DNA from: Clostridia bacterium
GTDB lineage: Bacteria > Bacillota > Clostridia > Christensenellales > CAG-917
Direction of reading: 5' to 3'
NCBI GenBank assembly: GCA_045613765.1
Contig: JAZLBO010000022.1
Span: forward strand, 15,854-79,853
Length of the DNA: 64,000 bases
The position numbers were made by a program, and so were the translations under genes. Under the pieces are notes generated by a model. That model did not search any database, was not told the DNA's origin, and worked only from the letters and a program-made list of their open reading frames with translations. Positions 20,821-64,000 of this stretch are shown here, in pieces (the first letter of the stretch is position 1; the number at the start of each line of letters is the position of its first letter).

Positions 20821-20821
20821 T

Positions 20822-32134: not shown

Positions 32135-32163
32135 AGAATACTAATTTACAAAGGCTTTGTCAA
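32135..32163 (-). promoter_or_regulatory. candidate sigma-A promoter of the S10 operon, with a ~100-nt two-hairpin leader
   Basis: Minus strand reads TTGACA, 17 nt, TATTCT. The leader contains GTGTCC-tcgtc-GGGCAC and TCGCCG-ccaaaa-CGGCGA hairpins. Confidence 0.45.
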
Positions 32164-32164
32164 G

Positions 32165-33920: not shown

Positions 33921-33953
33921 AGACATTTTCTCCCGTGCAATCTTATGCTCCAC

Positions 33954-34770: not shown

Positions 34771-34777
34771 ATTTCTC

Positions 34778-46700: not shown

Positions 46701-49700
46701 CGAAGGTATATTCTGCACTCATGATGTTTGCACCAATGTATGCTGTTCTTGTAAATGTGCCTGCCTCGATTTCATCTGTTGTAGGTGCGCCTGCGCTCCA
46801 AACAACGGGGACGCCTTCCTTGGTGGGTGTGCCGTCATTGTACACCACGTCTGCCACTGTGGGCAATGAGAACTCGCCAAATGCGTTGTAGATGAGGTTG
46901 AGGTTCTTGGGTGCAGTGAGAATTGTATCGACGTTTTCTGCGCCTGAAACGATTGTTTCACCGTTGTCGCCAACGAGATAAATCTTCACTTCAAATGAAT
47001 CTCTTGCAGGATAGACGATGCTGCCTTCATTGTAGAATTGGACTTCACGGATGACGTATGCACCGTTTTCGTCTGTTCTAAAGACCATCTTGCCGTTTTC
47101 TTCCACAAAGTCTGTTGCAAGTGAACCGGGTGTGCTGTCATCAATCCAGTTGACCTTGACGTTGGTCATTGTTGTTGCAACTTGTTCGCCCTTGACTGTG
47201 ACTGTTGTGGGAAGTTGCCATGCCTTGAATACGTTGTATTCAAATGAAGGAACTTCGTTTACGAAGTTGAGTCCTGTGAGTGTGGTGTTGCCACCGAAGA
47301 ACTTCACTGAACTATCTCCTTCAAGTGTCATTTCTGTGATTGCAAGTGAAGGAGTTGCAAGTTTGACTCTAAATTCTTGTGCGCCTACGGTTGCGATTGC
47401 ATATCTGTCGCCACCAACAGAGTTGACTGTAAATCCACCAAGATTCCAATCACGGACAAATGCCATTTCTGTATATTGTACGCCATCTGTTGTGTATGTG
47501 ATTGCAACTGCTGTGCCGTTTCTATAATCGCCCCACTCTCCAACTCTGAAATAGTTTTCAGAGTTGAGAATGTAGTGATATGTTGAAAGGTTGTAGGTCT
47601 TGCCGTCAAGGACGTATTCTGCATAGCCACTTGCTGTGTAGTTGTTGATGTCTTCAAGTGTTGCTTGTGACAATGTGTCGATTGCGCCACTTGTGATCAT
47701 ATCAACGTTGCTTGTGTTTGCAAGGAACTTGATTGATTTGATGTCCTTTTGAGGCACTGTAAGTCTAAGTTTGATGACTTGTGCTTGACCGTTGTGTGCG
47801 CCGTAAGGTACGCCGTTTGCATCCACCAAGAGATTGCCGTCTGCATCACAGGGATTTGCCTCTACCGTTGCGTAGAATGTGCCACCCTTGAAGATGTTGT
47901 CAACTTCCTTGGTGTATGTTGCATTGCTGTAGTACTTGACTGTTGACCAATCGGGCTTCATTGTGTGGTCAGGTGTTCCCTTTTCCTTGAAGTTGATTGT
48001 CAAGATGTTGTACTCATCTGAAAGGTTGTACCACTCAGGATCAAGAGTATGTTCACGGTTGACTGTAAGTCTATAGACGTTTGCAGTCATTGCTGTGACG
48101 TTGATAGGCACGTAAATGGTTTGTTTTCCACTCTTTTCTGTGCCGATATCAAGTTTTGCGTAAAGGTCTTGACCTTCGTAGCCGAGATATGAGAATTGTT
48201 CTCTTGTGACGCCCTCTGCAATGAGTGAATATTCACCGTCAACCTTCACGAAAGGTGCTGTGATTGTAAGTGAACTGCTGTCAAGGACGACAGGTTTGTC
48301 AGTGCCTTCAAAGATTGCCTTGATGTTGGTTGCAAATGATTCACCATTGATGACATCACTTGAATATGTGTCAAACGTGAGAGATTCTGTTTCAAGTGAA
48401 CTGAACACTCTGCCTGCAATCTTGACGGGGACTGAAACCTTTTGTGCGATTGCACCGTTGCCGGCTGTCAAATCGCCATCGCCAACAAATCCGTAGATAG
48501 GATCGCCATTGTCATCATAGCCTGTGACGTAACGGAATACGTTTGCGCCGACCAATGCTGTGACTGTGACGTCAATGCCCTTGTAGTAATCGTATGACAC
48601 TGAACCGTCTGCGCCTACTACCTTGATTTCTTCAAGGCGTTTTTCAAGGTTTGTAAGATCCCATGACACTGAAAGGTCTTGATATTGACCACTTGTGTAC
48701 TTGCCGTTTACATAGACAAATGTCTTGATGTATTCAGCGATTGAGTTATTAAGACTTGCATCTGCAAGGATGCTGTCAAGATCTCCAAATGCATCAAATG
48801 ATGTGAAGTTTGTTCTCTTGTCTGCATCCGTTGCGTTTGCTGATGTTGTTGTTGAGAAGTTTGCAATCTTTGCAGGATCGATTTCGTATCCCTTGACTGA
48901 AACTGTGACACTGCTTTCTGCGACTGCACTGAAGCCCCATTGATATTCAAAGTTGACGTCCACTGCACCACCTTCCCAGTTGAATGTGTATTCGTCGTAT
49001 GCGATCCAACCGACGGGGAAGTTTTTGCCTGTAGGCAACTTGTTGTAATCAAGGACTGCGTATTCAACGCCTTCAACAGTTTCTGTGACAACCTTGTAGT
49101 ATGTGCCACCTTCCACTGCACTGCCAACTGCCACTGCCACATATCTATCTGCCAACTTGGTGTACAAGCCCATTGTGAGTGCACCTGCGTTGAAGGATGA
49201 AATATCGCTTGCTGTTGCAACTGTGTACTTCAAGCCTGCAGTGTATGCATATTCAATCTTGTACTTGTTGCCGTGGATGTTGACCTTTTGATTGCCGTTG
49301 ACGTCGTTGTCAAGGACTTTATTGCCCTTTGCACGTGCATAGACCATGTCGCCATTGATGTCTGTGAGCACTGTACCGAAGGTGTACACCTTGCCGTTTT
49401 GGAACTTGATTCTCACAAGGTCAGGCATTGAAGGATTGTACTTGTTGCTGTCTGCATTGATGTCAATATTGATTGCAGATTGATTGAAGGTTGAGCCAGA
49501 TTGTGTATATGCGTACACGTTGGTAAGTGCGTATGCAGTTGTCGTATAGACGGGGATTGCATACATGACTTTGTTGAGTACGTAGCCATATACGTGACCC
49601 GCAAGATATTCGCCACTTGATGTGAGTTCTGCTGCACTGAAATCAATGGTTGATGCGTCCCAAATGATTGTTGTACCACCAAGGTAGTTTGTGTCGCCGG

Positions 49701-49775
49701 GGTTTGTTGATCCCACTGAGTCATATCCCTTGCCCGTTCCATTTGCCCAAGTGACCTTTGCCTTTTGAGGGAAGA
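43714..49775 (-). repeat. C-terminal array of degenerate Big_4-like (bacterial Ig-like, group 4 pattern) modules within the giant ORF
   Basis: Recurrent pattern [LF]-P-x-x-[AV]-x-V-x-[YW]-x-[DN]-G...V-x-W-[DS]...G-x-[YF]...V-x-V. Examples: FPQKAKVTWANGTG...IIWDAS, LPTTVTVKGEQV...VKVNWID, LPTVADVVYNDGTPTKEGVPVVWSA, FPARATITVEGGNTVNVPVTWDF. Confidence 0.55.
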
Positions 49776-52700
49776 TACTGGGATTTTCAAGGGCAGACTC
49801 GTTGAGAGTGATTGGCTTGCCGTCTGCAGTTGCTGCTCTTGTTGCAATATCTGTGACGATGATCTTTTCAGGAGGTGAGGATACTTGGTCACCGATGGTT
49901 GTTTCTTCAACCTTGGACACTTCCATAAATCCAAGCATTGCCGTGTTGTTTGAACCACTACCATCATTGTCGTAGGGGTTCATACGGAGGACGAAGTAAT
50001 CCCAACCACCGTTGTACATACCACTACCGAAGAAGTTGTCGCTGGTAGATGCATTGTCAAGACTGCTGAGTTCAACAACGCCACCACTGTAGCCGTAGGT
50101 CTTGCCCAAGTTATTTTGTCCCTTATAGATACCGTGGTTTGTATAAGTGTTGACAACTGTGCCTGCCTTTGTCTTGCTTGAGTTGACGTAGAGTTCAATT
50201 GCTTGAATACCACTGTACATCTTGAAGGTGCTGTTTGATGCAAAGCCGTAGTCGGTCTTGTTGGGGTTGATATCGATATAGATGCAGAGTGTAGGATCTG
50301 CTGCGCCTGCTTGTGCAAAAGGTATAGGCAAGATTGATGCAATGAGTTTTGATATGTTTGCAACAACGCCGTTTGCAAGTCCAGATGCCGCACCAAATGC
50401 TGCTGTGCCAACCATCTTTTCAACCACATCATCAAGGACCCACTTTGTCATTGCTGTAGGCAATGATCTCACAAGAGGTTCAAGGATGTTGACTCTTGCT
50501 GCAGTGTTGCCTGCCTTGCTGAGTTGGTCGAAGATGCTTGCAATATAACCCTTTTTATTTGCACCAAGTGATCTGTCTGCGCTCCAACTTTCTCCACTTG
50601 ACGTAATACCGTTGCCGTTGTTTACTGCAAGTTTTGCCATGTCGACGAAGTAATGTCTATCACTATGGCTATCAATACCTGTGTTGGTAAGACCGTCCAT
50701 TTTTTCTTGGAGCAAGCCAAGGACCATTGTGTACACGAAGACAAGAAGTTCGTTGTATGAATTCTTGTTGAGTGTGACCTTGATGGACATGTATCTTGTA
50801 TCGTCTGCCTTTGAAGGATCAAGTGCTTTCATGCCTGAGTAGTAAGGCACGTAGCCGTTGCTGTTGAACAAGTTCATTTCAACTTTCTTGAGAAGTCCTT
50901 CAAGACTCAAAGGATAACTGTACGTTGCTGCTGAATCACTTTCTTCGCCACTGCTCATTGCTTCACTTGCAGGATAACTGTAGGTGTATTGATCGCCATC
51001 CTTGTTTGATGTGAGTGCGATGAAGTGTGAGCCGTCTGTATTTGTCAAGGGGAATCCACTGACAAGGCTGCCAAGCAAACTGTTGAGTGTATCGCCCAAG
51101 AAGTCGAAGTCTGTGATGTACAAACTGTTGTTGAAGAAGTCGATTGATGCGCCCATTGCGCCACTGCCGTCACGTCTGTTGGGGTGAGTCATTGATGCCT
51201 TGAACGTCAATCTGTTGGTTGTGACGCCGTCACGGGTGACGTTTGCACGTGTTCCTATGAGTTCCACTCTCGTTGCAACGTTTTCTGTGATAACGTTGTT
51301 GCTTGTTGAGAGAATTGCGCCGTCAACCGTTGCTGTCCAGACACGCTTGTCGATTGTAATCTTCAGTGCAGGATTGAGTGATTCAATGACGCTTTGGACT
51401 GTTGCCATCATACCTGCAGTTGATGAGAGTGCAAGACCAATCTTTGCGCCCTTGAGTTCGTTGACTTTTGCGTTTACGTCAATCAAAGGCTTGTTGATTG
51501 ATGCGCTAATGCCACTGATGTCAACACCAAGGACTGTGTTGTGTCTGTCAAGAACGATTGTTGTGTTGACTGTTGTTGCGCTAAGGCCTTGGTTCAAGTC
51601 ATAGTTGATGCCTGCGCTGATTTGTTGGATGGGGAATCCATCAAGCATATCGCCAAGGTCAAGACCGAGCAAACTGATGAGTGTATTGATGAGTGCGCTA
51701 TCTGCCTTGAAGCCGATATATCCTTCTTGGATGTCAAGTTGGATGTCAACGCCACCAGTTGTTGCGCTTGCTGTTGCATCTTCTGCTGTTGATGATGCTT
51801 CGCTTTCGCTTGCGATCATACCACCGAGAAGTCCTTCAAGGTCCATACCTGCACTGCCACTGTTGGGATCGGTATTCATAGGATTGAGGATACCTGCCAA
51901 GCCATGGAAGTTGATGAGGCCAAGACCAAGACCTGTTGCATCAATGTAGAGTGAGTCTGCAAAGATCTTGTTGACGTCTGTTGTTGCCACAAGGTCATAG
52001 ACGTTGCCGTTCTTCTTAAGACCTGTTGAGCCAAGATAGTAGATTGCAAGGAAACTCTTGTTGGGAAGAATATCATCAATGGTGATGTCGATTGCAAAGT
52101 CACTGTACATGATGCCTGCAATACCCTTTGTGAGAAGTGCAGGAACATTGATGTCTGCTTCAACGTCAACGTTGATTGTGATAGGTCTTTGAGGCAATGT
52201 GATGATGAACTCGGTGTTCTTCAAAAGATCGATTTCGCCAACGAAACTCAAGATAAGGCTTTCAAGCCAGCCAACGAAGGTTTCGCTATATTCGGGGTTG
52301 AGCTTGCCGTTTGAATCGTACTTGGTGATACCTTCTGATGAGAGTGTCATTGACACTTCAAGTGTAAGGCTGATTGTTTCAATGCCGATTTGACCTGTTG
52401 TCACGTTGTATGCTTCGGTGTATGCAATGACGTGATCGCCGTTTCTATCGAGTACATAGTGTTCTTCAACATACTTGTATTCGCCATCCTTTGATGTGAC
52501 GTATTCACTGCCGACCTTTGCATAGCGTTGACCTTCATAACCTGCCTCTGCAAGTGCGTAGCCTGCTTCAACTTTGTTGTATCTTGTGCCTGCGTACTTA
52601 TACTTGCCGTTTGCAGATTCGGTGTAAGAGCCGTCTGCTTGTTTGTCGTATGTTTGACCTTGATAGTTCAAGAGTTCATCACCTGTGAGTTCAACAAATC

Positions 52701-55700
52701 TGTCGCCAAGTGCCTTGTGGGTTGCATTTGCAGAGTTGTAAACTTCGTACAAACTTGTTGTGCCAAAGCCTTCCTTCTTGTGCATACCAAATTCAAGGTT
52801 GACAACGTCTGCGCTTGCATAGAAGCCGTCGCTCATCTTGATGTTGAAGCTTGCAATATAAGGTCTTTCATCAACGCCATTGACAGGAGCGTATCCGTAT
52901 GAGTCAAACATGACTTCGCCAAGGTTGGGAAGGACGTTGCCAAGTTCTTTGCCTTGTTCGGAGTAGATTCTGTTGATAATTGCGTTGATTGTTGCCATTG
53001 ACAATGTCAATGAGAAGTATTGAGGATGGATCATTGCTTGCAAGAATGCCCAATCGTGAAGTGAAAGACCACCTGCAACGGTGCTTGTTGCTGCCATTGC
53101 TTCGCCATCTTCTACTGTTTCTGTGGGATTGAGGATTCCACCAAGGATTTCGTCAAGCATTGCGCCAAGTCCAAGTTCGCCAAGGTAAATCTTGCCTGTT
53201 TCGCCAAGGATTGTTGATGCGTCAATGTAAACGTTGTCGTTGGCAAGATAGATTGCCACGATGGGTTGATCCAAAACATTGCCGTTCTTATCATATTGGA
53301 CAACTTCAAATGCGATTTCAGTTGCGCCAAAGTTGTTAAGATCAATGTATGCGCCCAATTTGACTTGTGCTGAAGGATACTCTGCACTGCCCATATCGTT
53401 GATGATATTAAGGCGAAGTGTTGAGCCTGCCATATCGCTTGTGGGTGCAACGAGTCCAAATACAAGGTCAAGGATTTCGCTCAAATCAATGACGTTGTCT
53501 TCTTCGCCAATCTTTGCACTGCCGTAGTAGCTGACGTCCATTGCCATTGTAAGATTGAGTGTTGACTTTGTGATGTCTGCATAGTCAACAACCTTCTTGC
53601 CATCTGCGTCAACGTACTCGCCGTCTTCTTGTGCAATATTGAGGCTATCTCTGTTGGTGTAAAGACCAAGACCGTAAACCTTCATGTTAAGGCTCAAATC
53701 GCCGATAAGGAGATAATCGCCTGCTGTTGTCACATCATAACTTGCTCTGTCGTCTGCAACTGTCTTGCCCACGAGTTTTTCGTATGAATTGACGGGGAGA
53801 TATCTGTTGCCATCTGTGCCGTATGATGCGTATCTTGTGAGTTTGGTGGCTGCAAGATCTTCTGCTGTGAGCATTACAAATGCACCCTTGCCGTCTGCAT
53901 TGAGTGTAAATTCATTTGCGCTCTTCTTGAGTGTGCCGTTTTCACTGACAACGTATTGACCGTTCTTAAGTTCGTAACGTTGTCCTGTGTAGCCTGCTTC
54001 TGCAGTTTCAAATCCACTGAATACCTTTGTAAATGTTGTGCCGTCTGCTTCAAGGACGTATCTGTCGCCTGTCCATGCACTATTTGCATAGTCAACAAGT
54101 GCGTACTTGTCGCTTGAAACTTTGACGTGTGTGCCGTTGCCGTCAACCACGTATTGATCGTCAACAAGGCTGAACTTGACACCGTTGTAGTTTGCATATT
54201 CACTGACTTCTGCATAACTTTCGTAGCCGACCACAAATCCAAGGTTGATGCCAACTGAAGGTGAGCCGCCGCCAAGGTTGATGACGATACCACTTGTGTT
54301 TGCATCTTCTGTGATTTCAAGTTTGGGCAAGTAATCTGCGCCTTCAAAGTTGGGTGCGAGCATCTTGACCAAATCAACGAGAAGTTTGTCGTTGAAGCCG
54401 ATTGCAATAATGTCGTGTCCAAAGAGCACTTGACCAAGCACCATTTCTACGATACCAAAGATATCTTCGGGGATGATACCTGTGCTGCTTGTGACGTTTT
54501 CAATGCCGAGTTCTTCAAAGCCGAGTGTTTCTGCGCTTGATTGTGCCTCGCTGTCCATCAATGAGCCAAGGAGTGAAGCAATTTCAAGACCTTCAAACTT
54601 AACCTTGCTGAAGAAGTCACCAAGACCGACGATCTTGTCAAGTTCTTCAAGGTTCATATAGAGATTGAGTTTGCCGTCGTTGTCAATGTTCATCCAAACT
54701 TCGATGGTTGCGTTTTCATTGAAGTAGTTGGTTGTGCAAGTGATGTTGAAGTAGAGTTCGACACCCTTGAGAGCATTGATAATATCCCCACCGTTTTGTA
54801 CATAGTCAAGAAGGTTTTGGACGTTGAGTTTTGCCTTCATGTCAATGACAAGACCAATGTTTGCACCAAAGTTGCCGTTGTCCCAATCTGTTGATGCAAG
54901 GATAAATTCAAAGTAGTCATAGAGTTCTGTTGACAAGAACTGGGTCATTTGTTCTGTCCAGTTGATGACGTCACTGAGTCTAAGATCTATTGCAAGTGAC
55001 ATATCAAGTTCGACAGTTCCAAGATCCTTGAGCATTTCAAAGATGTCAATTTCGCCACCTGAAATGATTTGTCCAAGGTCAACGCTCATGATTGTGTTGT
55101 AGTTTGTGAAGTCATCTACTGCCTTGTAGTATGTTTCATTTGTGTCAAGGTTGATTGCAATGCCGTTTGCATCATATTCAACTTCCTTGCGCACATCACC
55201 ATCATAGTAGTAGAGTGAGCCACTTTCGTCCTTATCCCATGCAGGAATATAGTACTTCTCTATAGTTTCAAATGCTCTATATACACTAATATAACGTGCG
55301 TAGATGGATGTTGCCTTGGGTGAGATTTCAATGTGTGTGAAGTCTGCGCCTTCTGCCTTCACTGCGACACCGCCAACAATGTTGTAGCGTCTTGAAGGTG
55401 CAACGTATTCCATTGTGCCACTGTTGATGATATTTTCAACAACATATTCCTTGTCTGTGATGTTCCAGCAGTTGAGCATATCAATGTAGTTCGCCTTGCT
55501 GATGACCACGTTGAAGACTGAATCGTTGTTTACTTCTGCGTATCTTACTTCTGCTCTCTTATAGACAAGGATACCTGTTTGGACTGCGCTGTTGAATGCG
55601 CTTTCCGTTGCGTACACTTCTGTTGCCTTGACATAGTACTTGCGATCTGTGTGATATACGCCATTGCCAACGTCAACTGCATCTTCGGGGATAATTTCGC

Positions 55701-58700
55701 CTTGTGCCTTAAGTTCGCCAATTGCGTTGCCAATCTTCACGTATGCTTCTTCATAAGATGCATTATCGTCACGGACAAAGTTGCCGTAGTAGAAGATGTG
55801 GTTGTCTGCAACGTCGCCGTCAACTTCAATGCTACCCTTGTAGATTTCAATTCTTGAGTTGAAATCTTCCATTGTGCCGAAGTCGATTGTTGAACTGTTT
55901 TCTGTGCCGTTGAAGAGTTGTGTTTCAAGGCCGATTGTAAGGATACCCTTTGTGCCGTCTTCGTTGTAGAGATTGATATTTACACCTGCTGTGTAGGGGT
56001 TGAGTGTAAGGTTGACTCTTGTGTCAAAGTTGGGGAGCATATCGCCAAGTTCAACACCGAGAAGTTGAAGGAGAACTTCAACAAAGCCCTTTGTGATTGC
56101 AAGTGTAAGTTTTCTTGTGTAGATATTGATATACACGCCTGCGAGTGCAGGATTTGCATATCCGTCAACAAGACCTTCTGCTGCGCTTGCTTCTGCTGTG
56201 CTTGCTTCACTGCCACCAAGTGCGATTTCGCCTGAAAGGATACCTGCAATGAGTTCTTCAATTGAGTATGCACTCATATCAACTGCAAGTTTTCCACCTT
56301 CGCCGAGCATCCATTCAAGATCAAGATAGAGTGCTGCTTCGCCAGTGTCGATATCGTGGTTGTAGTAGATGCCGACCATGTGTGTGAGTGTGCCATCTTG
56401 ATAATTTTCGCCATCGTTTTCTCTGCGCCATACGTCAATTGCAAGGTCGAGATCAAAGATGTTGAGTTTGATTTCAGGTTTCCAGTCAATACGATATGAA
56501 ATGTTGATCTTGATTTCAAAGAGCATTTCTTCTGTGAAACCTTCAAGGACTCTAATCATTGCATTGTCAAGGTCGCCAACAATACCACCAAGCACTGAGC
56601 CAAGTGATTCTTCAACGCCTGTTGAGTACAAGACGTATTCGCCATTGTTGTATTGTTCGTAGTTGCCTTGGACAAATGTGTAACGGAGTGAAGGATCAAT
56701 GTCTGCTTCTGTGATTTGTTCACTTGCTGACTTGCCTGTGTTGACAAGTGCAAGATAATCTTCAACTGTCATGTAGTCATAGTAACCACTGACTGAAAGA
56801 CCACCACGGACTGTGAGTGCGATAAAGAACATATCGTCACTGTCAACGTACTTGATTTCTTCTCCACTTTCGTAGAGTGCAAGGTGCTTGACTTTTTCAA
56901 GGGTTGAGTCTGTGTTGACTTCCCAATCCTTTGTTGTGAAGTATGTTGCAAGATATTCGCCCACGGGCATATATGATCTTGTCCAACTGTCATACACGCT
57001 AAATGTTGTTTGTTCTGCTGTGTATGTTGCAAGTCTGTCTGCATCATAAAGTTCTTTGACCTTGCCGTCTGCACTTGTGAGTGATGTGCCAAGGACAAAT
57101 GCGTTTTCGTTCCAATTCCAGACGTATTCGCCATTGTTTTCAATTTCTGCAAGTTCCATCTTGTGGGTTGCTCTTGAAACAACGTTTTCTACTGTTGCAC
57201 GTTGATAATAGACTGTGCCGGCAGGTTCTGTGCCGTCTGCACGGACATAACTGTCACGATACCAAACTTGCTTGTAGAGTGCGTTTGTTGTAATTTCTTC
57301 GTAACGCTTGATGCCGAGTTCTGCAAGTTCAAAGTTGATGAAGAATGTACGGCCGTCTGCCATGAAGTCAACCATTTCTCCATCTGCAAAGTCAACTTCT
57401 GTATAGACTGTTGATGCAGGTACGTAGTTGCCTGATGCATCAATAACATAGAGTGATTCTGCATTGATTGCATAGTATTCGCCTTGATAGTAGAAGTAAC
57501 GGACGTTGTCGTTGTAGTTGCCAACGATATCAAGGCCGTCTGCTGTTGTACCGACGATGCTTTCCTTGACAATCCATTCGTCCTTTGTATCTACACTGCC
57601 AACAAATGTGTATGCGTATTCGGGTACAATATAATATCTGTCCCCTGCAGGTGTGTTTTCGTCTGCAAGTACGTAGTTGAAACCTTCAACACTGATTTCA
57701 GGGAAACCAACGTTGACACCGATTTCATATTCCCACAAATAGACCATGACGGACATGATGGGCTTTCTTTCGTATTTTGCAGGGTATGACACGAGCATAT
57801 CTGCTTCATCAATTGCGCTGAATACATAGTATTCATTGTTTGCTGATGAATCAAATGATGCCACTGCATATTTGCCACCACCAACGTGATAGTATGCATC
57901 TTCAAAGTTGGTTGTGCCAGTCTTTGAATAGTACTTGAAGTTGTCACCTGACATTTCTGCTCTTGCCTTTTCAATTGCGCTTGCCTTTGAAAGTGATTGA
58001 TAGTAATGTCCGGTTGATGTCAAAACCTTAAGATATGTGTCGTATGCCTTGATGGAGTAGAATTCGCCTTGATATGCTTCAAGTTCTGCATCTGTCAAGT
58101 CTGCCTTTGCAACATAGACACCGTCAACAAGAGCATAGTTTCCATTTGTCACGCCATCTTCAATGAAGAATCTCATATCTGAGTTGCTTTCTTCTGCTGT
58201 CAATGCGCTTTCATAGTAATAGACTGCTCTGTCTGTGTTGAGTTGTACGTAAGGTTCTTTTGTAAAGTCATTTTCATTGAATTGAAGACCTGTGTCAGAT
58301 CCTGCAAAGACCAATGAGAGAACTTCGTTGATGAAGTTGCTGTTGACAACGATTTGGACAAATGTTGATGTCATACGTACGCCAACCAAGAATGCTGTGA
58401 CATATTCTGCAAGTTCATCATCCAAGAGAGGAATTGCATTGTCGATTGTGTCTGTAATGCCCTCTGCTGTTTGTGCTTCTGATCCACCGTTTTCAAGGCT
58501 ACCAAGGAGTGAGCCAAGGATGCTTTCGACTTCGCCGATATGATCGTTTACTGTGCTACGGATTGAGTCACTATTGACATAGAAGCTGGGGAGATTGAGA
58601 TAACTGAGATCAAGGAACAATCCACCTCTTTCACGTCTGTAATCGCCATTGGGGTTGTTGTAGTAGTAGGTTGCGTCGTATGCATAACGAGTCATACCAA

Positions 58701-61700
58701 CTGATTCAATACCTTCGGGATCATAGACGAATTCGCCTCTTGCTGCATTGTAATAGTAGTTGCCATTTTCGTTTTCAAAGTAATGGCTATAACGGTATTC
58801 AGGAGCAACATAGTTTTCACTGCCGGGTGTTCTTTCGTCTTGTGTCATTTCACGGTATTCACCGCTTTCCATATAAACACCCACGAGTGTATGTGTATCT
58901 GATACTGTATATTTTTCGTTGCCGTCAACAACAACCTTATCTGCTGTTGTTTGGACAATCATTGATGCGTTGATGTATGAAAGGATTTCACTGATTGTTG
59001 CAAAATCAAGGTTTTGGACTGCACCAGCAATGACGTTGATGATGTCTGTGACACTCATTTCTGAGTTGATATTGCCCATTTCATCATTGAAACCACATTG
59101 ACGCAAGTAGTTGAGAAGTGCTGCAAACTTGACTTCAACTGTCAAGACAACTTCAATCTTACGTGCAACGTCGCCATTTGCATCTGAAACTGCACTGATG
59201 ATGAGTGCAAGTTCTTCAGGATCCATTTGGGGGAACAACCATTCAAGAACTGCTGTCATATCAATATCACTGCCCTTGACAAATCTTGTTGTAAGGTCAA
59301 CTGATTCTGTGATGACAATTCTGTCAAGTTCTGTGACTTCGGTGTATTCCTTCAAGTCTTCTGCTGTCAAGTGATATTCGTGTTCTGATGTGAACTTGAC
59401 GTCAACGTCTTTCACTGCAACCATAAGGTTGACTGCTGTATCGTATTCGTTCAAGTTGCCTGCGCCATCACTTTCACGTCTAAAGTACTTGGTTGTAGGA
59501 TCGTCATTTGCGCTTGCTTTTTCACGGACGTAAACCACTGAAGGTCTTGCCCCATCGGGTGCGAGTGCTGTGTATGATTCGCCCTTTTCAATGTAAAGTT
59601 GTCTGCCCTTGTGGTCAGGATTGCTTTCATCATAGAGTACGAAGAAGTAGTCGCCTTCAACAAGAACTGTGCCGTCATAGTCAACTTCTTCAAGGACGGG
59701 TTCGTCAACTGCAACATAACGGCTGCCTTCCATCATGAACTTGACTGTTGTGTCAAGTGCCAATGCATCATCAAATGCTGCGTTGATTTCTGCTGATGCA
59801 AGGATCTTGTCTGTGATGTACTTGTCAAGGTCAAGACCTTCCACGAGCATATCAATGACTGAACGGATGAGTTTGTTGCTGATTGAGATTGTAAGTTTAC
59901 GCTTGCTGATGAGAAGGAGTGCATCTGCTTCGTCTTCTGCCACAGGTGCTGCTGCCATTGCTTCACTGCTTGCATCGTTCTTGGGAAGTTCATTTTCTGT
60001 GTAAATGTCTTCGTCAAGAAGTCCACCCAGTGTTTCGCTGATGAATTCTGCCACTGCAGGTGACGTGATGCTGAGTTTAGGCACGTTGAAGTAAGGTGCA
60101 TCAAGGAAGAACTTGCCACTGAAATAGTAGATGCCAATCCAGAGATTGTCTGCGCCTGTTTCTGCAATGTTATAGATTTCGATTGCCACTTCACTGTTTG
60201 CCATTTCTGCAAAGTCAACAACGAGAGATGTGTCAACACGGAAGTGTGCTGATGAATAACCCTTTGTTGTTGTGGGCATTTCGAGCATCAAGCCTTGGAC
60301 GTTGCCAAGAACATTGCTTACGATTGTGCCAAGGTCAATTTGACCTTCTGTGATGCCAAGGTCAATTTCCACTGATGCCTTGACTGACACTGATGTTTCA
60401 TAGAAAGGTACGATGGGGACGTACTTACTTGCATCATCTCTGTCTGTTTCGTTGAGAATATAGTCAGGGATAAGTGCTGTGCTGTTGCCACCGATTTGGA
60501 GTTCAAGGCCACCGACTGCAAAGCCGAGTTCAACGCCGTTGACGTCAAGGTTCAAACCAAATGAGAAATCTTTGATTTCTGTGTATGACTTGACATAGCG
60601 ATAGTAGTCGCCTTCTGCATCAATAACGTAACCTTGATATCTGTCTGCAAAGCCTGCAACGGGTGCAAACTTGCCACTTCTACGGACATAGTATTCTGCA
60701 TTTGCATCGTAGTGATCTGCGATATCTTCTGCTTTGACAAGGTTATAACTGCCGTCAACAAGTACGTAGAGTGAGTATTTTTCTGCATCAAAGTATTCAT
60801 ACTCAGGTGTGCCATCAACTTCGCCAACTTCTACTTTTGCATATCTGCCGTCGTAGTTGTTGTCTTTCCAAGTGATTTCATCATAGTATGTATATCTTTC
60901 GTTCAAAGGAAGGATGAGTGTGTAGATTTCCTTTTCTGCATTTTCTTCTTCTACAAGGATTGTCTTTTGCTTGTAGATTGCTTCTGCGCTGTCTTCTGCT
61001 TCTGCAAATGTGACACTGTATCTTACTGTGCCTTCTGCAAGTGCATTGACATCGTCAATGTAGAGATAGTAATCCTTTCCGTTGATTGTTTGCTTGTAGT
61101 AGTCACCGTTTGCATCTTCTTGTGCAGATGAAACAAAGTATTTTGCGCCTGTATAAAGTTCTGCAAGGACTTCTTTTTCAAGATCTGCATCTGCAGGATC
61201 AAAGAATTTTGCATATTCATACTTGCCCATTTCTGCATTGAGTGAAACTTCAAGGCTTTCAAAAATGTCAAGGATTGAGCCCATATCGGGGAGCAATGTT
61301 GCAATGATCACTGAAAGGAGTGTCTTGCTGATGAGCACTTGACTTGCAGTATTTGAGTAGATGAGTGAAATGACTGCACCTCTTTCTGCATCAACTGTTT
61401 CATCACTTGCTGCCATTGCTTCTTCTGTTGCAAGACCTTCGAGAAGGCTCATAACAAGTTCAACGAAGTTGGGCACTTTTGTATATGCTGTTGAGAGATT
61501 GTAAAGGCCTGTGCCGTCAATGTACAAGTCACCTCTGTAGAGATAGACGCCACCGAGAGCAACAAAGTCGCCGTTTGCATCTCTTACAGGAGTTCCCTTG
61601 TCATCTGTACGGAGAATTTCAAGAGCAAATTCGATTGTATCAAGGTCGCTTGTTGCAATAAATTCTGCAAGCATTGCTTCCACATTGTCGCCACCTGCAA

Positions 61701-64000
61701 GAAGTGCGCCAATGTTGAGTGCACTAAGGTCGCCTTGGAGTGAAATTCTTGCTGCAACACCGTCGTGGAATGCACCTGTTGTCTTTGCTTGGATAAGAAG
61801 GTCTGCGATATAGTTTTCAACAAGACCACCAAGTTCAAGTGTGGCAACGTCTTCACTGTCAAAGTTGATCATGACGTTCATGCCAACACCCAAAGTCATT
61901 GTGCTGAGGTTTTCATCCATAGGATACTTCTCGGGGTCAATGATTGACATGAGAAGGTCAATGTATGATGAGATTTCTGTATAGTCGTTCTTGTCAAGTT
62001 GTGAGAGAACGGGGCTATAATCTTCGTCTGCAACAGAGAGTGTCATACCTGCACCCATCTTGATGGTCATGCCTGTGCCTGACACTGTGGTGAGGTTCAT
62101 TGCAAGACTATGCTTGCCGTCCATTGTTGCATCGTTGAGTTTGATGAAGATACCACTTTCGCTTTCATCAAGATTGAACATATCAAGACGAATGTCTTGT
62201 CCTGTGATGAGTGATGCGATATCTGCAATGAGAGTTGAGTTGAGAAGGATATCAATTCCGTCAAATTTGTTGTACCAGAATTCGTCGCCTTCTTGGTATG
62301 CATTGCCACCCATACCGATTGCAGTGCTCTTGATGATGATGCGCTTGATGAACTTGTTGAGATAGTCAACAATGCCGGGTGCTGCAACTTCTTCGTCGGC
62401 GGCGGCTTGTGCTTCTTCTTCGCCACCAAGGACGCCAAACATATCAAGGATATCGCCAAGGTTGAACTTCACTTGAGGTCCTTTGAGATCGCCAAGGTTG
62501 ATGTAGAGATCGCCACCCAAGAGATAGATGCCGATTGACACTTCATCTGCTTCGCCATAGTTGAAGACCATTTCAACTGCCACTTCAAGTGCGCTCAAAA
62601 TTGTTTCAACGTCAAAGTTGAAGTTTTCAATGTCAAGTTTTGTAAGCAAATCACTTACACCAAGGACGCCAAGATCAACACTGCCTGAAACACGGAAGAC
62701 CACTGTTTCGCTGATAGGATCGTTCAAGTACATTTCAAGACCAAGTCTGTCAATGATTGCGCCAACAAGGTTCTTCACTGTGCCTTCTTCAAGACCTACG
62801 AGAAGGTTTTGGACTGCATCAAGGCTGAAGATTGTGTCAACCAAATCGCTGTAAACAAGAGGATCTTTGACGTACAAGCCGTTGGGATCTTGTGCATAAG
62901 TTCCGTCGGATTCACGACGTGAATATCTTTCATCGTCGCTGTAAAGTTTTGCTGTTGCTTCGTCAACAAGGATATAGGTGTCTGCAAAGTTGAATTGAAT
63001 TTCAAATTCAAGTTCAAATGCAACCTTTTCATTGTTTGCATAGTTGTTGAATCTGTCTGCACCGTTTTCGCCACCAACATATCTATAATATGTTGTTCCG
63101 TTATTTTCAAGTGTTCCTGTATAACGGACGTACATGCCATCTTCTTTTACGAAGACCTTGTCGGTTTCTGTGTTGACGTATGCGTATTCAACTGCACTGA
63201 TAACTGTGTAGTTGCTGTCGTTTTGATAGTGATAGATGCCGTCTTCAAGTCTTGCAGTGACAGAGTCAAGTCTTGTTGCTGCAATTCTGGGATTACGGAC
63301 ATTGATTGATGCGTTGACAAGGTCACTTGCAAAGTCAAATGACAATGAGCCACCTGCAAAGTCAACGTCAAAGTTGAGTTCAATGCCAAGTTCGGGGAGT
63401 TTCTTGATTGCTTCGCTGATATTGATATCGCCAAGGACTGAACCACCTTCTTCACTTGACATAACAAGTTCAACCACAAATGCAAGGATGCCAACAAGGG
63501 TTTGTTGTGTGATTGAAAGTGAAATTCTTTCACTTGCGATTGCAAGGACGATTTCAAGTGCTTCTTCACTGGTCATTGTTGCACTTTCTTCGCTTGCTGC
63601 CATGGCTTCGCCATCTTCTTCTGTTTCAGACCCAAAGATTGCACTGATTGTTTCAACAATCCAAGTTGAAATGCCAGTGTTTTCAATCATAAAGTCTTCA
63701 TTTGACAAGATGCCCATGTCAACGTAGAGTTTTCTACCTTGCAAATAGATGCCAATGATTGTGCTGTCTGCTGCTGCGTTTGTGCCTGCAACAAGGTTCT
63801 TGATTTCAATCACCAATTCTGTTTCTTCGGGATTGTCAAGAGAGATATTTCCTGCGATCAACATTTCAATGTTGACAAGCATATCCTTTTCAATTTCAAC
63901 GCCGATTGCAAGTGCAAAGTCTGCCACAAATGCTGAAACGATATCATTGATGGGCAATTCATCATTTTCAAAGTCTTGTGTGTCGCAGATTTCAAGGCTC
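43714..64000 (-). CDS. giant acidic modular protein, >6,760 aa, 5'-partial (runs off the window). Probable secreted/surface protein of unknown family
   Basis: ORF track gives 43714..63957 (6,747 aa). The 14 codons from 63958 to 63999 are also sense in frame (..SLEICDTQDFENDE-), so the ORF is open at the edge and the track's Met is a TTG artefact. Content is repeat modules plus Ig-like repeats. Confidence 0.9.
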   Translation of the reverse strand, partial: SLEICDTQDFENDELPINDIVSAFVADFALAIGVEIEKDMLVNIEMLIAGNISLDNPEETELVIEIKNLVAGTNAAADSTIIGIYLQGRKLYVDMGILSNEDFMIENTGISTWIVETISAIFGSETEEDGEAMAASEESATMTSEEALEIVLAIASERISLSITQQTLVGILAFVVELVMSSEEGGSVLGDINISEAIKKLPELGIELNFDVDFAGGSLSFDFASDLVNASINVRNPRIAATRLDSVTARLEDGIYHYQNDSNYTVISAVEYAYVNTETDKVFVKEDGMYVRYTGTLENNGTTYYRYVGGENGADRFNNYANNEKVAFELEFEIQFNFADTYILVDEATAKLYSDDERYSRRESDGTYAQDPNGLYVKDPLVYSDLVDTIFSLDAVQNLLVGLEEGTVKNLVGAIIDRLGLEMYLNDPISETVVFRVSGSVDLGVLGVSDLLTKLDIENFNFDVETILSALEVAVEMVFNYGEADEVSIGIYLLGGDLYINLGDLKGPQVKFNLGDILDMFGVLGGEEEAQAAADEEVAAPGIVDYLNKFIKRIIIKSTAIGMGGNAYQEGDEFWYNKFDGIDILLNSTLIADIASLITGQDIRLDMFNLDESESGIFIKLNDATMDGKHSLAMNLTTVSGTGMTIKMGAGMTLSVADEDYSPVLSQLDKNDYTEISSYIDLLMSIIDPEKYPMDENLSTMTLGVGMNVMINFDSEDVATLELGGLVENYIADLLIQAKTTGAFHDGVAARISLQGDLSALNIGALLAGGDNVEAMLAEFIATSDLDTIEFALEILRTDDKGTPVRDANGDFVALGGVYLYRGDLYIDGTGLYNLSTAYTKVPNFVELVMSLLEGLATEEAMAASDETVDAERGAVISLIYSNTASQVLISKTLLSVIIATLLPDMGSILDIFESLEVSLNAEMGKYEYAKFFDPADADLEKEVLAELYTGAKYFVSSAQEDANGDYYKQTINGKDYYLYIDDVNALAEGTVRYSVTFAEAEDSAEAIYKQKTILVEEENAEKEIYTLILPLNERYTYYDEITWKDNNYDGRYAKVEVGEVDGTPEYEYFDAEKYSLYVLVDGSYNLVKAEDIADHYDANAEYYVRRSGKFAPVAGFADRYQGYVIDAEGDYYRYVKSYTEIKDFSFGLNLDVNGVELGFAVGGLELQIGGNSTALIPDYILNETDRDDASKYVPIVPFYETSVSVKASVEIDLGITEGQIDLGTIVSNVLGNVQGLMLEMPTTTKGYSSAHFRVDTSLVVDFAEMANSEVAIEIYNIAETGADNLWIGIYYFSGKFFLDAPYFNVPKLSITSPAVAEFISETLGGLLDEDIYTENELPKNDASSEAMAAAPVAEDEADALLLISKRKLTISISNKLIRSVIDMLVEGLDLDKYITDKILASAEINAAFDDALALDTTVKFMMEGSRYVAVDEPVLEEVDYDGTVLVEGDYFFVLYDESNPDHKGRQLYIEKGESYTALAPDGARPSVVYVREKASANDDPTTKYFRRESDGAGNLNEYDTAVNLMVAVKDVDVKFTSEHEYHLTAEDLKEYTEVTELDRIVITESVDLTTRFVKGSDIDMTAVLEWLFPQMDPEELALIISAVSDANGDVARKIEVVLTVEVKFAALLNYLRQCGFNDEMGNINSEMSVTDIINVIAGAVQNLDFATISEILSYINASMIVQTTADKVVVDGNEKYTVSDTHTLVGVYMESGEYREMTQDERTPGSENYVAPEYRYSHYFENENGNYYYNAARGEFVYDPEGIESVGMTRYAYDATYYYNNPNGDYRRERGGLFLDLSYLNLPSFYVNSDSIRSTVNDHIGEVESILGSLLGSLENGGSEAQTAEGITDTIDNAIPLLDDELAEYVTAFLVGVRMTSTFVQIVVNSNFINEVLSLVFAGSDTGLQFNENDFTKEPYVQLNTDRAVYYYESALTAEESNSDMRFFIEDGVTNGNYALVDGVYVAKADLTDAELEAYQGEFYSIKAYDTYLKVLTSTGHYYQSLSKASAIEKARAEMSGDNFKYYSKTGTTNFEDAYYHVGGGKYAVASFDSSANNEYYVFSAIDEADMLVSYPAKYERKPIMSVMVYLWEYEIGVNVGFPEISVEGFNYVLADENTPAGDRYYIVPEYAYTFVGSVDTKDEWIVKESIVGTTADGLDIVGNYNDNVRYFYYQGEYYAINAESLYVIDASGNYVPASTVYTEVDFADGEMVDFMADGRTFFINFELAELGIKRYEEITTNALYKQVWYRDSYVRADGTEPAGTVYYQRATVENVVSRATHKMELAEIENNGEYVWNWNENAFVLGTSLTSADGKVKELYDADRLATYTAEQTTFSVYDSWTRSYMPVGEYLATYFTTKDWEVNTDSTLEKVKHLALYESGEEIKYVDSDDMFFIALTVRGGLSVSGYYDYMTVEDYLALVNTGKSASEQITEADIDPSLRYTFVQGNYEQYNNGEYVLYSTGVEESLGSVLGGIVGDLDNAMIRVLEGFTEEMLFEIKINISYRIDWKPEIKLNIFDLDLAIDVWRRENDGENYQDGTLTHMVGIYYNHDIDTGEAALYLDLEWMLGEGGKLAVDMSAYSIEELIAGILSGEIALGGSEASTAEASAAEGLVDGYANPALAGVYINIYTRKLTLAITKGFVEVLLQLLGVELGDMLPNFDTRVNLTLNPYTAGVNINLYNEDGTKGILTIGLETQLFNGTENSSTIDFGTMEDFNSRIEIYKGSIEVDGDVADNHIFYYGNFVRDDNASYEEAYVKIGNAIGELKAQGEIIPEDAVDVGNGVYHTDRKYYVKATEVYATESAFNSAVQTGILVYKRAEVRYAEVNNDSVFNVVISKANYIDMLNCWNITDKEYVVENIINSGTMEYVAPSRRYNIVGGVAVKAEGADFTHIEISPKATSIYARYISVYRAFETIEKYYIPAWDKDESGSLYYYDGDVRKEVEYDANGIAINLDTNETYYKAVDDFTNYNTIMSVDLGQIISGGEIDIFEMLKDLGTVELDMSLAIDLRLSDVINWTEQMTQFLSTELYDYFEFILASTDWDNGNFGANIGLVIDMKAKLNVQNLLDYVQNGGDIINALKGVELYFNITCTTNYFNENATIEVWMNIDNDGKLNLYMNLEELDKIVGLGDFFSKVKFEGLEIASLLGSLMDSEAQSSAETLGFEELGIENVTSSTGIIPEDIFGIVEMVLGQVLFGHDIIAIGFNDKLLVDLVKMLAPNFEGADYLPKLEITEDANTSGIVINLGGGSPSVGINLGFVVGYESYAEVSEYANYNGVKFSLVDDQYVVDGNGTHVKVSSDKYALVDYANSAWTGDRYVLEADGTTFTKVFSGFETAEAGYTGQRYELKNGQYVVSENGTLKKSANEFTLNADGKGAFVMLTAEDLAATKLTRYASYGTDGNRYLPVNSYEKLVGKTVADDRASYDVTTAGDYLLIGDLSLNMKVYGLGLYTNRDSLNIAQEDGEYVDADGKKVVDYADITKSTLNLTMAMDVSYYGSAKIGEEDNVIDLSEILDLVFGLVAPTSDMAGSTLRLNIINDMGSAEYPSAQVKLGAYIDLNNFGATEIAFEVVQYDKNGNVLDQPIVAIYLANDNVYIDASTILGETGKIYLGELGLGAMLDEILGGILNPTETVEDGEAMAATSTVAGGLSLHDWAFLQAMIHPQYFSLTLSMATINAIINRIYSEQGKELGNVLPNLGEVMFDSYGYAPVNGVDERPYIASFNIKMSDGFYASADVVNLEFGMHKKEGFGTTSLYEVYNSANATHKALGDRFVELTGDELLNYQGQTYDKQADGSYTESANGKYKYAGTRYNKVEAGYALAEAGYEGQRYAKVGSEYVTSKDGEYKYVEEHYVLDRNGDHVIAYTEAYNVTTGQIGIETISLTLEVSMTLSSEGITKYDSNGKLNPEYSETFVGWLESLILSFVGEIDLLKNTEFIITLPQRPITINVDVEADINVPALLTKGIAGIMYSDFAIDITIDDILPNKSFLAIYYLGSTGLKKNGNVYDLVATTDVNKIFADSLYIDATGLGLGLINFHGLAGILNPMNTDPNSGSAGMDLEGLLGGMIASESEASSTAEDATASATTGGVDIQLDIQEGYIGFKADSALINTLISLLGLDLGDMLDGFPIQQISAGINYDLNQGLSATTVNTTIVLDRHNTVLGVDISGISASINKPLIDVNAKVNELKGAKIGLALSSTAGMMATVQSVIESLNPALKITIDKRVWTATVDGAILSTSNNVITENVATRVELIGTRANVTRDGVTTNRLTFKASMTHPNRRDGSGAMGASIDFFNNSLYITDFDFLGDTLNSLLGSLVSGFPLTNTDGSHFIALTSNKDGDQYTYSYPASEAMSSGEESDSAATYSYPLSLEGLLKKVEMNLFNSNGYVPYYSGMKALDPSKADDTRYMSIKVTLNKNSYNELLVFVYTMVLGLLQEKMDGLTNTGIDSHSDRHYFVDMAKLAVNNGNGITSSGESWSADRSLGANKKGYIASIFDQLSKAGNTAARVNILEPLVRSLPTAMTKWVLDDVVEKMVGTAAFGAASGLANGVVANISKLIASILPIPFAQAGAADPTLCIYIDINPNKTDYGFASNSTFKMYSGIQAIELYVNSSKTKAGTVVNTYTNHGIYKGQNNLGKTYGYSGGVVELSSLDNASTSDNFFGSGMYNGGWDYFVLRMNPYDNDGSGSNNTAMLGFMEVSKVEETTIGDQVSSPPEKIIVTDIATRAATADGKPITLNESALENPSIFPQKAKVTWANGTGKGYDSVGSTNPGDTNYLGGTTIIWDASTIDFSAAELTSSGEYLAGHVYGYVLNKVMYAIPVYTTTAYALTNVYAYTQSGSTFNQSAINIDINADSNKYNPSMPDLVRIKFQNGKVYTFGTVLTDINGDMVYARAKGNKVLDNDVNGNQKVNIHGNKYKIEYAYTAGLKYTVATASDISSFNAGALTMGLYTKLADRYVAVAVGSAVEGGTYYKVVTETVEGVEYAVLDYNKLPTGKNFPVGWIAYDEYTFNWEGGAVDVNFEYQWGFSAVAESSVTVSVKGYEIDPAKIANFSTTTSANATDADKRTNFTSFDAFGDLDSILADASLNNSIAEYIKTFVYVNGKYTSGQYQDLSVSWDLTNLEKRLEEIKVVGADGSVSYDYYKGIDVTVTALVGANVFRYVTGYDDNGDPIYGFVGDGDLTAGNGAIAQKVSVPVKIAGRVFSSLETESLTFDTYSSDVINGESFATNIKAIFEGTDKPVVLDSSSLTITAPFVKVDGEYSLIAEGVTREQFSYLGYEGQDLYAKLDIGTEKSGKQTIYVPINVTAMTANVYRLTVNREHTLDPEWYNLSDEYNILTINFKEKGTPDHTMKPDWSTVKYYSNATYTKEVDNIFKGGTFYATVEANPCDADGNLLVDANGVPYGAHNGQAQVIKLRLTVPQKDIKSIKFLANTSNVDMITSGAIDTLSQATLEDINNYTASGYAEYVLDGKTYNLSTYHYILNSENYFRVGEWGDYRNGTAVAITYTTDGVQYTEMAFVRDWNLGGFTVNSVGGDRYAIATVGAQEFRVKLATPSLAITEMTLEGDSSVKFFGGNTTLTGLNFVNEVPSFEYNVFKAWQLPTTVTVKGEQVATTMTNVKVNWIDDSTPGSLATDFVEENGKMVFRTDENGAYVIREVQFYNEGSIVYPARDSFEVKIYLVGDNGETIVSGAENVDTILTAPKNLNLIYNAFGEFSLPTVADVVYNDGTPTKEGVPVVWSAGAPTTDEIEAGTFTRTAYIGANIMSAEYTFAVAYAYEVEGLGTAGDLAYTLTADKFYNGLPTSATIYPDKESKSVSYIAKLNWKVKYDNNGNITSGLNEDGTVNVEISANGVKLETKVMLSVSATKIAYADVNMTETFVIDPLGVETTLFGKGAQQVLATVGTAADGTEIYEVVTVNADYTLPQDLFTNTVNYFGKTLAFDITFTYPGGSQKMTVNCEVMDRTIDKIVNPMYRSITVDPYRYDTFREGGLGLPLEIEAYLSDGTVATFVPEWPDDSLISAKGYENPGYMVTFRSYALSTDGTYVKYTYMSNGIEITRYGTVAEADAVGGTYDDSRYVMGATQQVNIPVVVLSREVSSAEFVTPEFEKATRTDSRSSYTIKYVGTDTTLGNLVDVVYSAKTNMPTEVIFYNGFAVAGTTMPNEIDITFAKTGEVKRYYVVLDGIDQLSQNFDVTVTNEYKVTARVYPNSTMDFELFSFELTFTVKKVSVTRHNSTIASHNMSNDLLYDSFEVYEDADNGNSVYNTNNYLATTTFYPDGKFISLEEWNKVASNSYRMSRYMTTGEYLYKVLGNGTVVDGRVAVDGNGDRIGTPTYYQYDSTTKTYTVVDVQGTARNTYVFVYTVSQQLEVDWNANQTALSVKGGDNYVYATVSNGGASTEVKVPIFVLDGTAVAISADATDFVDSDAVSSYMEVTDNTLTFTFDPFVTPNVFEQLSTGNYKYFPARATITVEGGNTVNVPVTWDFGIAKVNCQGGTYNITAILDGSEFGVGTQSVRARLVIIDRTAVGIVESANSGLTSNVGYMWQDSTGKTQTYINPYEYYSSTLSLPNSLTVEVKTATGTEQITFSTTNNTYKLAWSMRDFRPTYTGGITYLTAVLTGPDGSSQNLNIPFLVQKMTVSKITTVYYVDEERVASPKIKATRYSTGAYTSAVVNGVASVGYNLSLGSFPKGLKVTFTVENPVVDSEGNVTFVAATNGGTGWEKHANGDKFSKVFAYVSTIMPTTVTSNAVINVQIGSGERVKITIAG
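50926..63609 (-). repeat. >=10 copies of a large (~280-760 aa) unclassified repeat unit, delimited by acidic Ala/Ser linkers, within the giant ORF
   Basis: Linkers lie at 63595-63609, 62377-62424, 61408-61422, 59950-59964, 58462-58494, 56173-56217, 54521-54559, 53089-53103, 51751-51813 and 50926-50973. Each is preceded by an IGIYLxGxxLYID-type hairpin and an LLGxL helix. Confidence 0.7.

Follow-up and report, generated by a model that had tools for sequence, protein, structure and literature searches.

What kind of protein accounts for the long repetitive region at positions 50,926–63,609 of a 64,000-nucleotide stretch of DNA from an uncultured Clostridia bacterium (GenBank assembly GCA_045613765.1, contig JAZLBO010000022.1, positions 15,854–79,853)? 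A reading made earlier from the letters alone (hereafter, the sequence-only reading) had proposed that this part of the window, as we call the whole 64,000-nucleotide stretch, encodes at least 10 copies of a very large, length-variable repeat, each boundary of which carries a hairpin, a short helix, an acidic linker of the E-A-M-A-A type and an amphipathic strand and helix (below, part d). We confirmed the internal repeat and found that it belongs to a single giant protein. On balance we consider it probable, with modest confidence, that the region is the central stalk of a giant, acidic, lipid-anchored surface fibre or adhesin that carries a new repeat and occurs in uncultured gut Clostridia related to Christensenellales.

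Nine solid copies and one degenerate copy in a giant reading frame

The region lies entirely within one giant open reading frame (ORF). In the minus-strand frame translated from position 63,999 down, where residue i begins at 63,999 − 3(i − 1), the only stop in 6,761 codons is the terminal one, leaving 20.3 kb without internal stops. Because the frame is still open at the window edge, further repeat copies are expected outside the window. The encoded protein is acidic (isoelectric point 4.3) and contains 8 cysteines in 6,761 residues; a low isoelectric point and few cysteines are common traits of exported surface proteins in Gram-positive bacteria. We rejected the possibilities that the ORF is a pseudogene, results from faulty assembly or is read with an alternative genetic code, as the frame stays open across 20 kb and 57 species show the same architecture.

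The repeat was assessed by pairwise and by profile comparison. Chunk-against-chunk BLASTP paired residues 60–177 with 1269–1387 (E = 4e-6), residues 52–192 with 3552–3693 (E = 6e-6) and residues 2501–2658 with 3543–3693 (E = 9e-5); a self-BLAST of the whole protein returned the identity match only, with no internal repeat pairs. In a leave-one-out test, each junction was sought with a profile made from the nine others, and 50 locally shuffled versions of the full protein served as a control. Nine of the 10 junctions (J1–J9) were recovered, at 13.5–58 bits, while the best scores in the shuffled controls were mostly at or below 9 bits, with one at 16. The protein thus contains a true internal tandem repeat. 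The remaining junction, J10, was missed at 2.4 bits and likewise gave no match to the iterated family profile. Its hairpin, LLGSL helix and SEAMSS motif nevertheless follow one another in the expected sequence, and because this order is kept despite the failed profiles we treated it as a degenerate terminal copy; a weak copy equivalent to it is present in one relative (P0008). The tally for the window is therefore nine solid copies and one degenerate copy, so that the claim of at least 10 copies stands, its tenth member being weak.

The details of the sequence-only reading proved accurate. The hairpins that it quoted lie where it had placed them, with all coordinates exact, and the four literal EAMAA linkers are encoded exactly at 63595–63609, 61408–61422, 59950–59964 and 53089–53103. 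The four parts follow one another in the claimed order, as in J1, which shows a strand, the hairpin IIGIYLQGRKLYVDMG, a helix, the EAMAA linker and the strand/helix. Equivalent points are separated by 411, 318, 480, 486, 763, 562, 480 and 406 residues, which agrees with the proposed spacing of roughly 280–760. Two hairpins are themselves interrupted, that of J5 by an 80-residue tyrosine-rich insert (residues 1713–1792) and that of J9 by an insert of about 25 residues.

The repeat unit, its linker and its inserts

A profile from the alignment of 17 junctions was searched against 1.84 billion representative proteins and matched 165 clusters at E ≤ 1e-3, 24 of them at E ≤ 1e-30. Many family clusters are 5,000–7,900 residues long and contain 12–16 matched stretches; many of 6,500–7,900 residues start with a lipoprotein signal peptide and have 13–16 units. 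A word-indexed homologue search found only two close relatives with a 1,400-residue query and a single fragment with the junction alignment as the query. After two local profile iterations, full-length members showed 13–16 copies with a mode of 14, the first copy starting about 95 residues from the protein start, and this copy number was held among subfamilies that share only about 20% identity. In a collinear alignment, J1–J9 correspond to copies 6–14 of a relative (P0003), and a 73%-identical fragment (P0002) carries four further copies upstream of the first residue of the window. By these alignments, the window holds only units 6–14 (15) of about 14–15.

We measured the unit on 640 unit pairs. 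Its length has a sharp floor near 250 residues, a mode of 275–300 and a long tail beyond 1,000; the floor and the mode indicate a basic unit of about 290 residues. The four parts of the proposed junction are thus real and ordered, but they do not mark a unit boundary: they are the best-conserved core, of about 150 residues, of an alpha/beta unit of about 290. In this core, a strand precedes a beta-hairpin; then come another strand, a short amphipathic helix and a flexible acidic loop rich in alanine, serine and glycine, and one or more further strands with a helix complete it. Across 836 copies, conservation is highest at the two tyrosines and the aspartate of the hairpin G-I-Y-Y..G.L-Y-I-D-L-S. 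The remainder of the unit is also conserved and displays alternating hydrophobic and polar strands, with consensus sequences such as LDLDLGL, LGLSLGGLNIG, VSLELDLDL and LDINLDLDIDANLDLKANLDL.

Searches against known families left the repeat without a match. With Pfam-A at E ≤ 1, zero families were found in residues 1–3500 and only Big_4 beyond them, and 30 separate units searched at E ≤ 10 gave zero consistent families. NCBIfam and PHROGs yielded no meaningful match in the repeat region, the NCBIfam rows falling far below their cut-offs, and the same held for the repeat region of shorter full-length family members. The best match of the junction profile among PDB sequences had an E value of 0.58. 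These results bear out the earlier view that the repeat is not of the immunoglobulin (Ig), cadherin, Rhs/YD, leucine-rich, collagen or CWB type. Our literature searches found no paper describing this repeat family. Giant repetitive surface proteins are a known kind; there seems to be no earlier description of this repeat unit, of its conserved copy number or of its setting in a lipoprotein.

We next consider the acidic linker. Within residues 1–4400, the motif EA-x-[AST]-[AST] occurs 11 times, once at each of J1–J10 with a second occurrence at J6 and none elsewhere, whereas shuffled controls averaged 1.4 occurrences and reached at most 6 (500 trials). The glutamate and the alanine are the only invariant columns among the 17 close-clade junctions. 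This pattern raises the possibility that the linkers are processing or modification sites of a polyprotein, from which about 15 fragments of 300–760 residues would be released to act separately on the surface; that the motif lies within a segment predicted by AlphaFold at low confidence, or as flexible, would fit such processing. Its distribution speaks differently. The motif is present at 9/9 junctions of the window protein, 5/5 of P0001 and 4/5 of P0002, at roughly half to three quarters of the junctions of P0003, P0005, P0006 and P0011, and at about none of those of P0019, P0026, P0030, P0033, P0050, P0036 and P0037. Its absence from the distant subfamilies makes it a clade-specific signature and not a defining part of the unit, so that the linker described in the sequence-only reading holds for every junction in the window but not for the family. 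As these subfamilies keep both the unit and the copy number without the motif, processing there cannot be essential to the family. Moreover, no dedicated protease gene was seen adjoining the giant gene, and concerted evolution of tandem units could explain the conservation of the motif. Because the motif is clade specific, we regard the polyprotein as very unlikely.

The variable length of the units had been attributed to hypervariable inserts, and these turned out to be lineage-specific modules at a few fixed positions. The main cluster of long inserts lies behind the strand after part d (72 units, with inserts of at least 25 and up to 342 residues); the acidic linker is a second site (65 units), and a third lies just before the next core. 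A comparison of the window protein with P0001 (53% identical over 1,861 aligned residues) revealed four tyrosine-rich segments of 159, 61, 86 and 80 residues that are absent from P0001, with an aromatic content of 13–21% as compared to 10.7% overall. Two of the tyrosine-rich modules are paralogues, with 41% identity between residues 3320–3370 and 3804–3854 (BLASTP, E = 7e-8). Judging from these comparisons, the units appear to be lengthened at a few fixed loops by tyrosine-rich modules that are gained and lost between related species. The inserts carry short tyrosine- and glycine-spaced motifs, R-Y-x-L-x-x-G-x-Y-V...G-x-Y, with a period of about 20–25 residues. In this they presumably resemble the CW_binding_1 and YG aromatic hairpin repeats of wall- and glucan-binding proteins, from which they differ in giving no Pfam match at E ≤ 1 and in lying inside the loops of another domain, where CW_binding_1 and YG repeats form a terminal array.

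A few relatives carry small cysteine-containing modules with the pattern D-x-[DN]-G-x-C-D-x-C in or adjoining the acidic linker, which otherwise has almost no cysteine: P0005 (at about residue 1418), P0014 (about 1145, 1489 and 2512), P0022 (about 806) and P0029 (about 1254). The window protein has none. Their pattern suggests that they may be metal-binding mini-domains.

Ends of the protein, distribution and gene neighbourhood

The sequence-only reading had overlooked that the repeats belong to one giant protein, probably a lipoprotein, whose C-terminal third carries Big_4 modules. In nearly all homologues with a complete N terminus, a K/R-rich n-region and a hydrophobic h-region come first, followed by a lipobox such as LVAC, LIAC or LVGC, which was judged by eye with the pattern [LVI][ASTVI][GAS]C. 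One homologue signal peptide reads MRRLKFALLFVLVICLVASALVAC, followed by N. A protein-based scan yielded a metagenome contig, L058, that matches the N-terminal part of P0002 at 75% identity and has the lipobox ...KKLKIALLIVLLISLVTCLFAC, followed by NNSIEPDNPDP (also written ...LVTCLFAC, then NN). The features of a signal peptidase II lipoprotein are thus found in the homologues and in L058. A degenerate DNA pattern for the 5' end of the window found nothing in the metagenome contigs. Chaining the fragments of relatives places the first residue of the window at about residue 1,630, which gives a full length of about 8,400 residues; the complete protein would then start with an N-terminal lipoprotein signal peptide like that of its relatives.

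Downstream of the repeats, a conserved region leads into a threonine- and valine-rich part (Table 1), and the C-terminal 2,300 residues or so contain at least five Big_4-like Ig modules. An iterated profile located five of them, at residues 5075–5152, 5706–5757, 6322–6388, 6435–6499 and 6549–6616. Pfam itself assigned Big_4 (PF07532) to residues ~6451–6499 with 28.2 bits, above the gathering threshold of 22.1, and Big_4 likewise exceeded the Pfam cut-off in L001, L011 and P0028. A PDB search for the C-terminal region gave no match.

To determine the distribution of the gene, one genome per GTDB species was scanned with the post-repeat region as the query. We found the giant gene at 57 species loci, all from uncultured gut metagenome-assembled genomes (MAGs) labelled Clostridia, Clostridiales, Christensenellales or Christensenella, a few of which are evidently mislabelled bins. 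The best of the 57 loci is 60% identical, so that the species of the window lies outside that collection. One locus is on a 1.65-Mb MAG chromosome, where the giant gene accounts for over 1% of the coding capacity. At the locus on the long-read MAG chromosome (L030; CP091723.1, 646465–667934), the giant frame is interrupted and the match is spanned by a 2,991-residue open frame; this could reflect assembly indel errors or a true pseudogene.

Two genes follow the giant gene on the same strand in at least 40 of the 57 loci, one for an SPFH/Band_7 protein with zinc ribbons (51–70% identity across loci) and one for a zinc-ribbon protein with a C-terminal hydrophobic tail (41–60%). The two may be functionally linked to the giant gene. 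Some lineages have an additional gene of about 355 residues in between. A 168-residue ORF on the opposite strand (39870–40376, +), with a 'Gate' (nucleoside recognition) domain, recurs close to the giant gene in about 20 loci, with 57–66% identity.

This neighbourhood bears on a second explanation, in which the protein is a structural component of an envelope scaffold or a coat resembling a surface layer (S-layer), its copy number fixing a spacing or thickness and its inserts reflecting variation under phage or immune pressure. Such a role would suit the identical architecture in 57 species, the constancy of 13–16 copies across deep divergence, the gene order shared with membrane-associated SPFH and tail-anchored zinc-ribbon genes, and the retention of so large a gene in the 1.65-Mb genome. 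We nevertheless consider it rather unlikely: Pfam and NCBIfam revealed neither an SLH or CWB2 domain nor any other domain of S-layer or wall-binding type, one chain of 8,400 residues is unlike known lattice-forming S-layer proteins, and the synteny may merely reflect kinship within one order.

The coordinates are collected in Table 1. The presence of a complete ribosomal-protein operon, in which L3, L2, SecY, Adk and RpoA were confirmed by Pfam, identifies the window as chromosomal, and its other surroundings are those of an ordinary chromosome, with a transketolase gene, ABC transporter genes, metG, tatD and ksgA. The operon has a strong AT skew like that of the giant gene. Between it and ksgA, positions 32001–34000 are low in GC (36%, as compared to about 45% in the flanks) with a GC skew of −0.19; the two ORFs at this stretch, 32790–33953 (−; 387 residues) and 34288–34854 (−; 188 residues), gave no Pfam match.

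Table 1. Positions of the features discussed, in window coordinates; residues are numbered from the first residue of the giant protein within the window. LOO, leave-one-out score; FP, family profile score.
Feature	Position	Strand	Residues	Remarks
Giant ORF	43714..64000	−	at least 6,761 in all	5' end cut by window edge
Repeat (stalk) region	50728..63999	−	1-4424	family units 6-14 and degenerate fifteenth
Unit core J1	63424..63870	−	44-192	LOO 51 bits; FP 86 bits
Unit core J2	62167..62604	−	466-611	LOO 20-21 bits; FP 72 bits
Unit core J3	61258..61680	−	774-914	LOO 28 bits; FP 78 bits
Unit core J4	59812..60246	−	1252-1396	LOO 58 bits; FP 107 bits
Unit core J5	58267..58692	−	1770-1911	LOO 25 bits; FP 66 bits
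Unit core J6	56023..56490	−	2504-2659	LOO 37 bits; FP 75 bits
Unit core J7	54316..54771	−	3077-3228	LOO 13.5 bits (weakest solid copy); FP 38 bits
Unit core J8	52921..53367	−	3545-3693	LOO 46 bits; FP 98 bits
Unit core J9	51634..52107	−	3965-4122	LOO 19.5-22 bits; FP 55 bits
Degenerate terminal copy J10	50728..51285	−	4239-4424	hairpin SIDFFNNSLYITDF, helix LNSLLGSLV, motif SEAMSS
Tyr-rich insert	60565..61233	−	923-1145	17-21% aromatic; absent from P0001
Tyr-rich insert	59473..59730	−	1424-1509	absent from P0001
Tyr-rich hairpin-type module	53875..54231	−	3257-3375	paralogue of residues 3765-3864
Tyr-rich module	52408..52707	−	3765-3864	paralogue of residues 3257-3375
Conserved post-repeat region	49360..50922	−	4360-4880	mean column identity 44% (9 orthologues)
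C-terminal Thr/Val-rich region	43717..48777	−		Big_4-like Ig modules (Pfam and iterated profile)
SPFH/Band_7 protein with zinc ribbons	42265..43392	−	375 in all	Pfam; directly downstream of giant gene
Zinc-ribbon protein, C-terminal hydrophobic tail	41230..42261	−	343 in all	second downstream neighbour
Complete S10/spc/alpha-type ribosomal-protein operon	16957-32031	−		

Structure models, function and known systems

We modelled the repeat with AlphaFold2, using either residues 30–940 with 20 orthologues or a single unit with 30 paralogous units. The first model reached a mean predicted local distance difference test (pLDDT) score of 59 and a predicted template modelling (pTM) score of 0.44, and the second was no better (pLDDT 57, pTM 0.34). 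In both, strands scored 70–85 pLDDT and each linker fell below 50, as did the part d segments after the linkers in the first model. These low-confidence models predict about 10 strands (of up to 14 residues) and four or five helices per unit. A Foldseek search with them found nothing at E < 0.29 in the PDB and nothing at E < 0.08 in the PDB and BFVD together. Mean-field direct coupling analysis of 601 aligned units (effective number 560) was dominated by gap and indel artefacts and gave no usable strand pairing.

The sequence-only reading had speculated about a beta-solenoid or a repeating beta-groove. Neither was confirmed: the models are of low confidence and mix their strands with helices, and the comparison with TamB was negative. 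The latter fold would imply a conduit as in TamB, YhdP or VPS13, with a hydrophobic-faced sheet carrying lipid or other hydrophobic cargo outward. Long tandem arrays of alternating hydrophobic and polar strands followed by a helix and a loop, a membrane-anchored end and a conserved unit number, such as a bridge of fixed length would need, are all in keeping with it. However, AsmA, AsmA_2 and TamB (DUF490) gave no Pfam match at E ≤ 1 with the protein or at E ≤ 10 with the 30 units, and hhalign of the unit profile against Escherichia coli TamB returned a probability of 0.1%. The homologues carry a lipobox where groove proteins have an uncleaved N-terminal transmembrane helix, the Clostridia host presumably lacks an outer membrane, and large tyrosine-rich inserts and a 2,300-residue Ig-bearing tail are foreign to known groove proteins. 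Given the negative TamB, Pfam and Foldseek tests, we consider such a conduit highly improbable; if it were true, it would be the first bridge-like machine of this kind in a Clostridia lineage. The broader proposal, that the unit is a new fold whose roughly 14 copies form a membrane-to-surface structure of fixed length (for example, a hydrophobic-faced conduit) or a polyprotein cut at E-A, also strikes us as quite unlikely. The interpretation offered in the sequence-only reading is partly supported.

We therefore return to the surface fibre or adhesin that we favour. The protein would comprise a signal peptide, about 14 units of about 290 residues, a conserved region of about 500 residues and a threonine- and valine-rich tail of about 2,000 residues with at least five Big_4-like modules. 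Lipidation of the lipobox cysteine would tether the N terminus to the cytoplasmic membrane. Stacked head to tail, the units would build a long rod, whose length the conserved copy number would set. This rod would carry the tyrosine-rich modules and the distal Ig-like array off the membrane, across the wall and past it. These two parts are the likely interaction surfaces of a protein that would act as a fibrillar adhesin or surface fibre and bind surface material of host, dietary or microbial origin. The analysis shows the repeat and its family, the lipobox in homologues, the conservation of the copy number, the variability of the inserts and the Big_4 modules; the shape of the rod, the exposure at the surface and the binding are inferred.

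Several points weigh against this interpretation. The generic Big_4 modules apart, we identified no domain for adhesion or ligand binding, and neither a cell-wall anchoring motif nor a wall-binding domain was found in the giant protein. The N terminus of the window protein itself lies beyond the window, its lipobox being predicted from those of its relatives. With unit models at pLDDT 57–59 and pTM 0.34–0.44, rod-like stacking is an assumption. Last, a single-copy, syntenic gene kept in small genomes suits a structural envelope role as well as adhesion.

Whatever its function, this is a conserved gene of about 25 kb that makes up more than 1% of some small gut genomes and occurs in at least 57 uncultured species from the guts of humans and other animals, yet Pfam, NCBIfam, the PDB and Foldseek all fail to recognise its main building block. 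The definition of the unit (its profile, boundaries, copy number and insert hot spots) gives a means of annotating giant proteins that are labelled 'hypothetical' and number in the hundreds. The protein is likely to represent a major surface structure in Christensenellales-like bacteria, which are linked to host phenotypes and hard to culture, and it raises concrete questions about the fold, the constraint on length and the clade-specific E-A linker motif.

We also compared the giant protein with known systems. With AsmA-like or repeating beta-groove proteins (TamB, YhdP, VPS13, ATG2) it has in common tandem amphipathic strands with a helix or loop, a membrane-anchored end and a fixed number of units. 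It differs from them in the absence of sequence, profile or Foldseek similarity, in having a lipobox in place of a transmembrane anchor, in its acidic disordered loops, large inserts and Ig-bearing C-terminal third, and in a host presumed to have no outer membrane. With Big_4 (PF07532) proteins it shares at least five related modules in its C-terminal region; these account for only a few hundred residues in a protein of 6,761 or more and leave the repeat unexplained.

Fibrillar adhesins and giant Gram-positive surface proteins (Ebh, SasG/Aap and Bap-type) provide a further comparison. The anchor of the giant protein is an N-terminal lipobox, while theirs is a C-terminal LPXTG motif. Its stalk unit is a mixed alpha/beta module of about 290 residues that is absent from Pfam and NCBIfam, in contrast to their Ig, G5-E and FIVAR-type modules of about 70–130 residues, and its copy number is conserved at 13–16 where theirs varies freely. 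Unlike them it has no recognised adhesive head domain, its candidate binding parts being the Big_4-like modules and the unannotated tyrosine-rich inserts only. The repeated stalk of about 14 units and the lipobox anchor of the homologues are those expected of a fibrillar adhesin. Together with Ebh, SasG/Aap and Bap-type proteins, the giant protein is a multi-thousand-residue, acidic, cysteine-poor, exported chain with tandem stalk repeats, Ig-like modules and variation in length and inserts between relatives.

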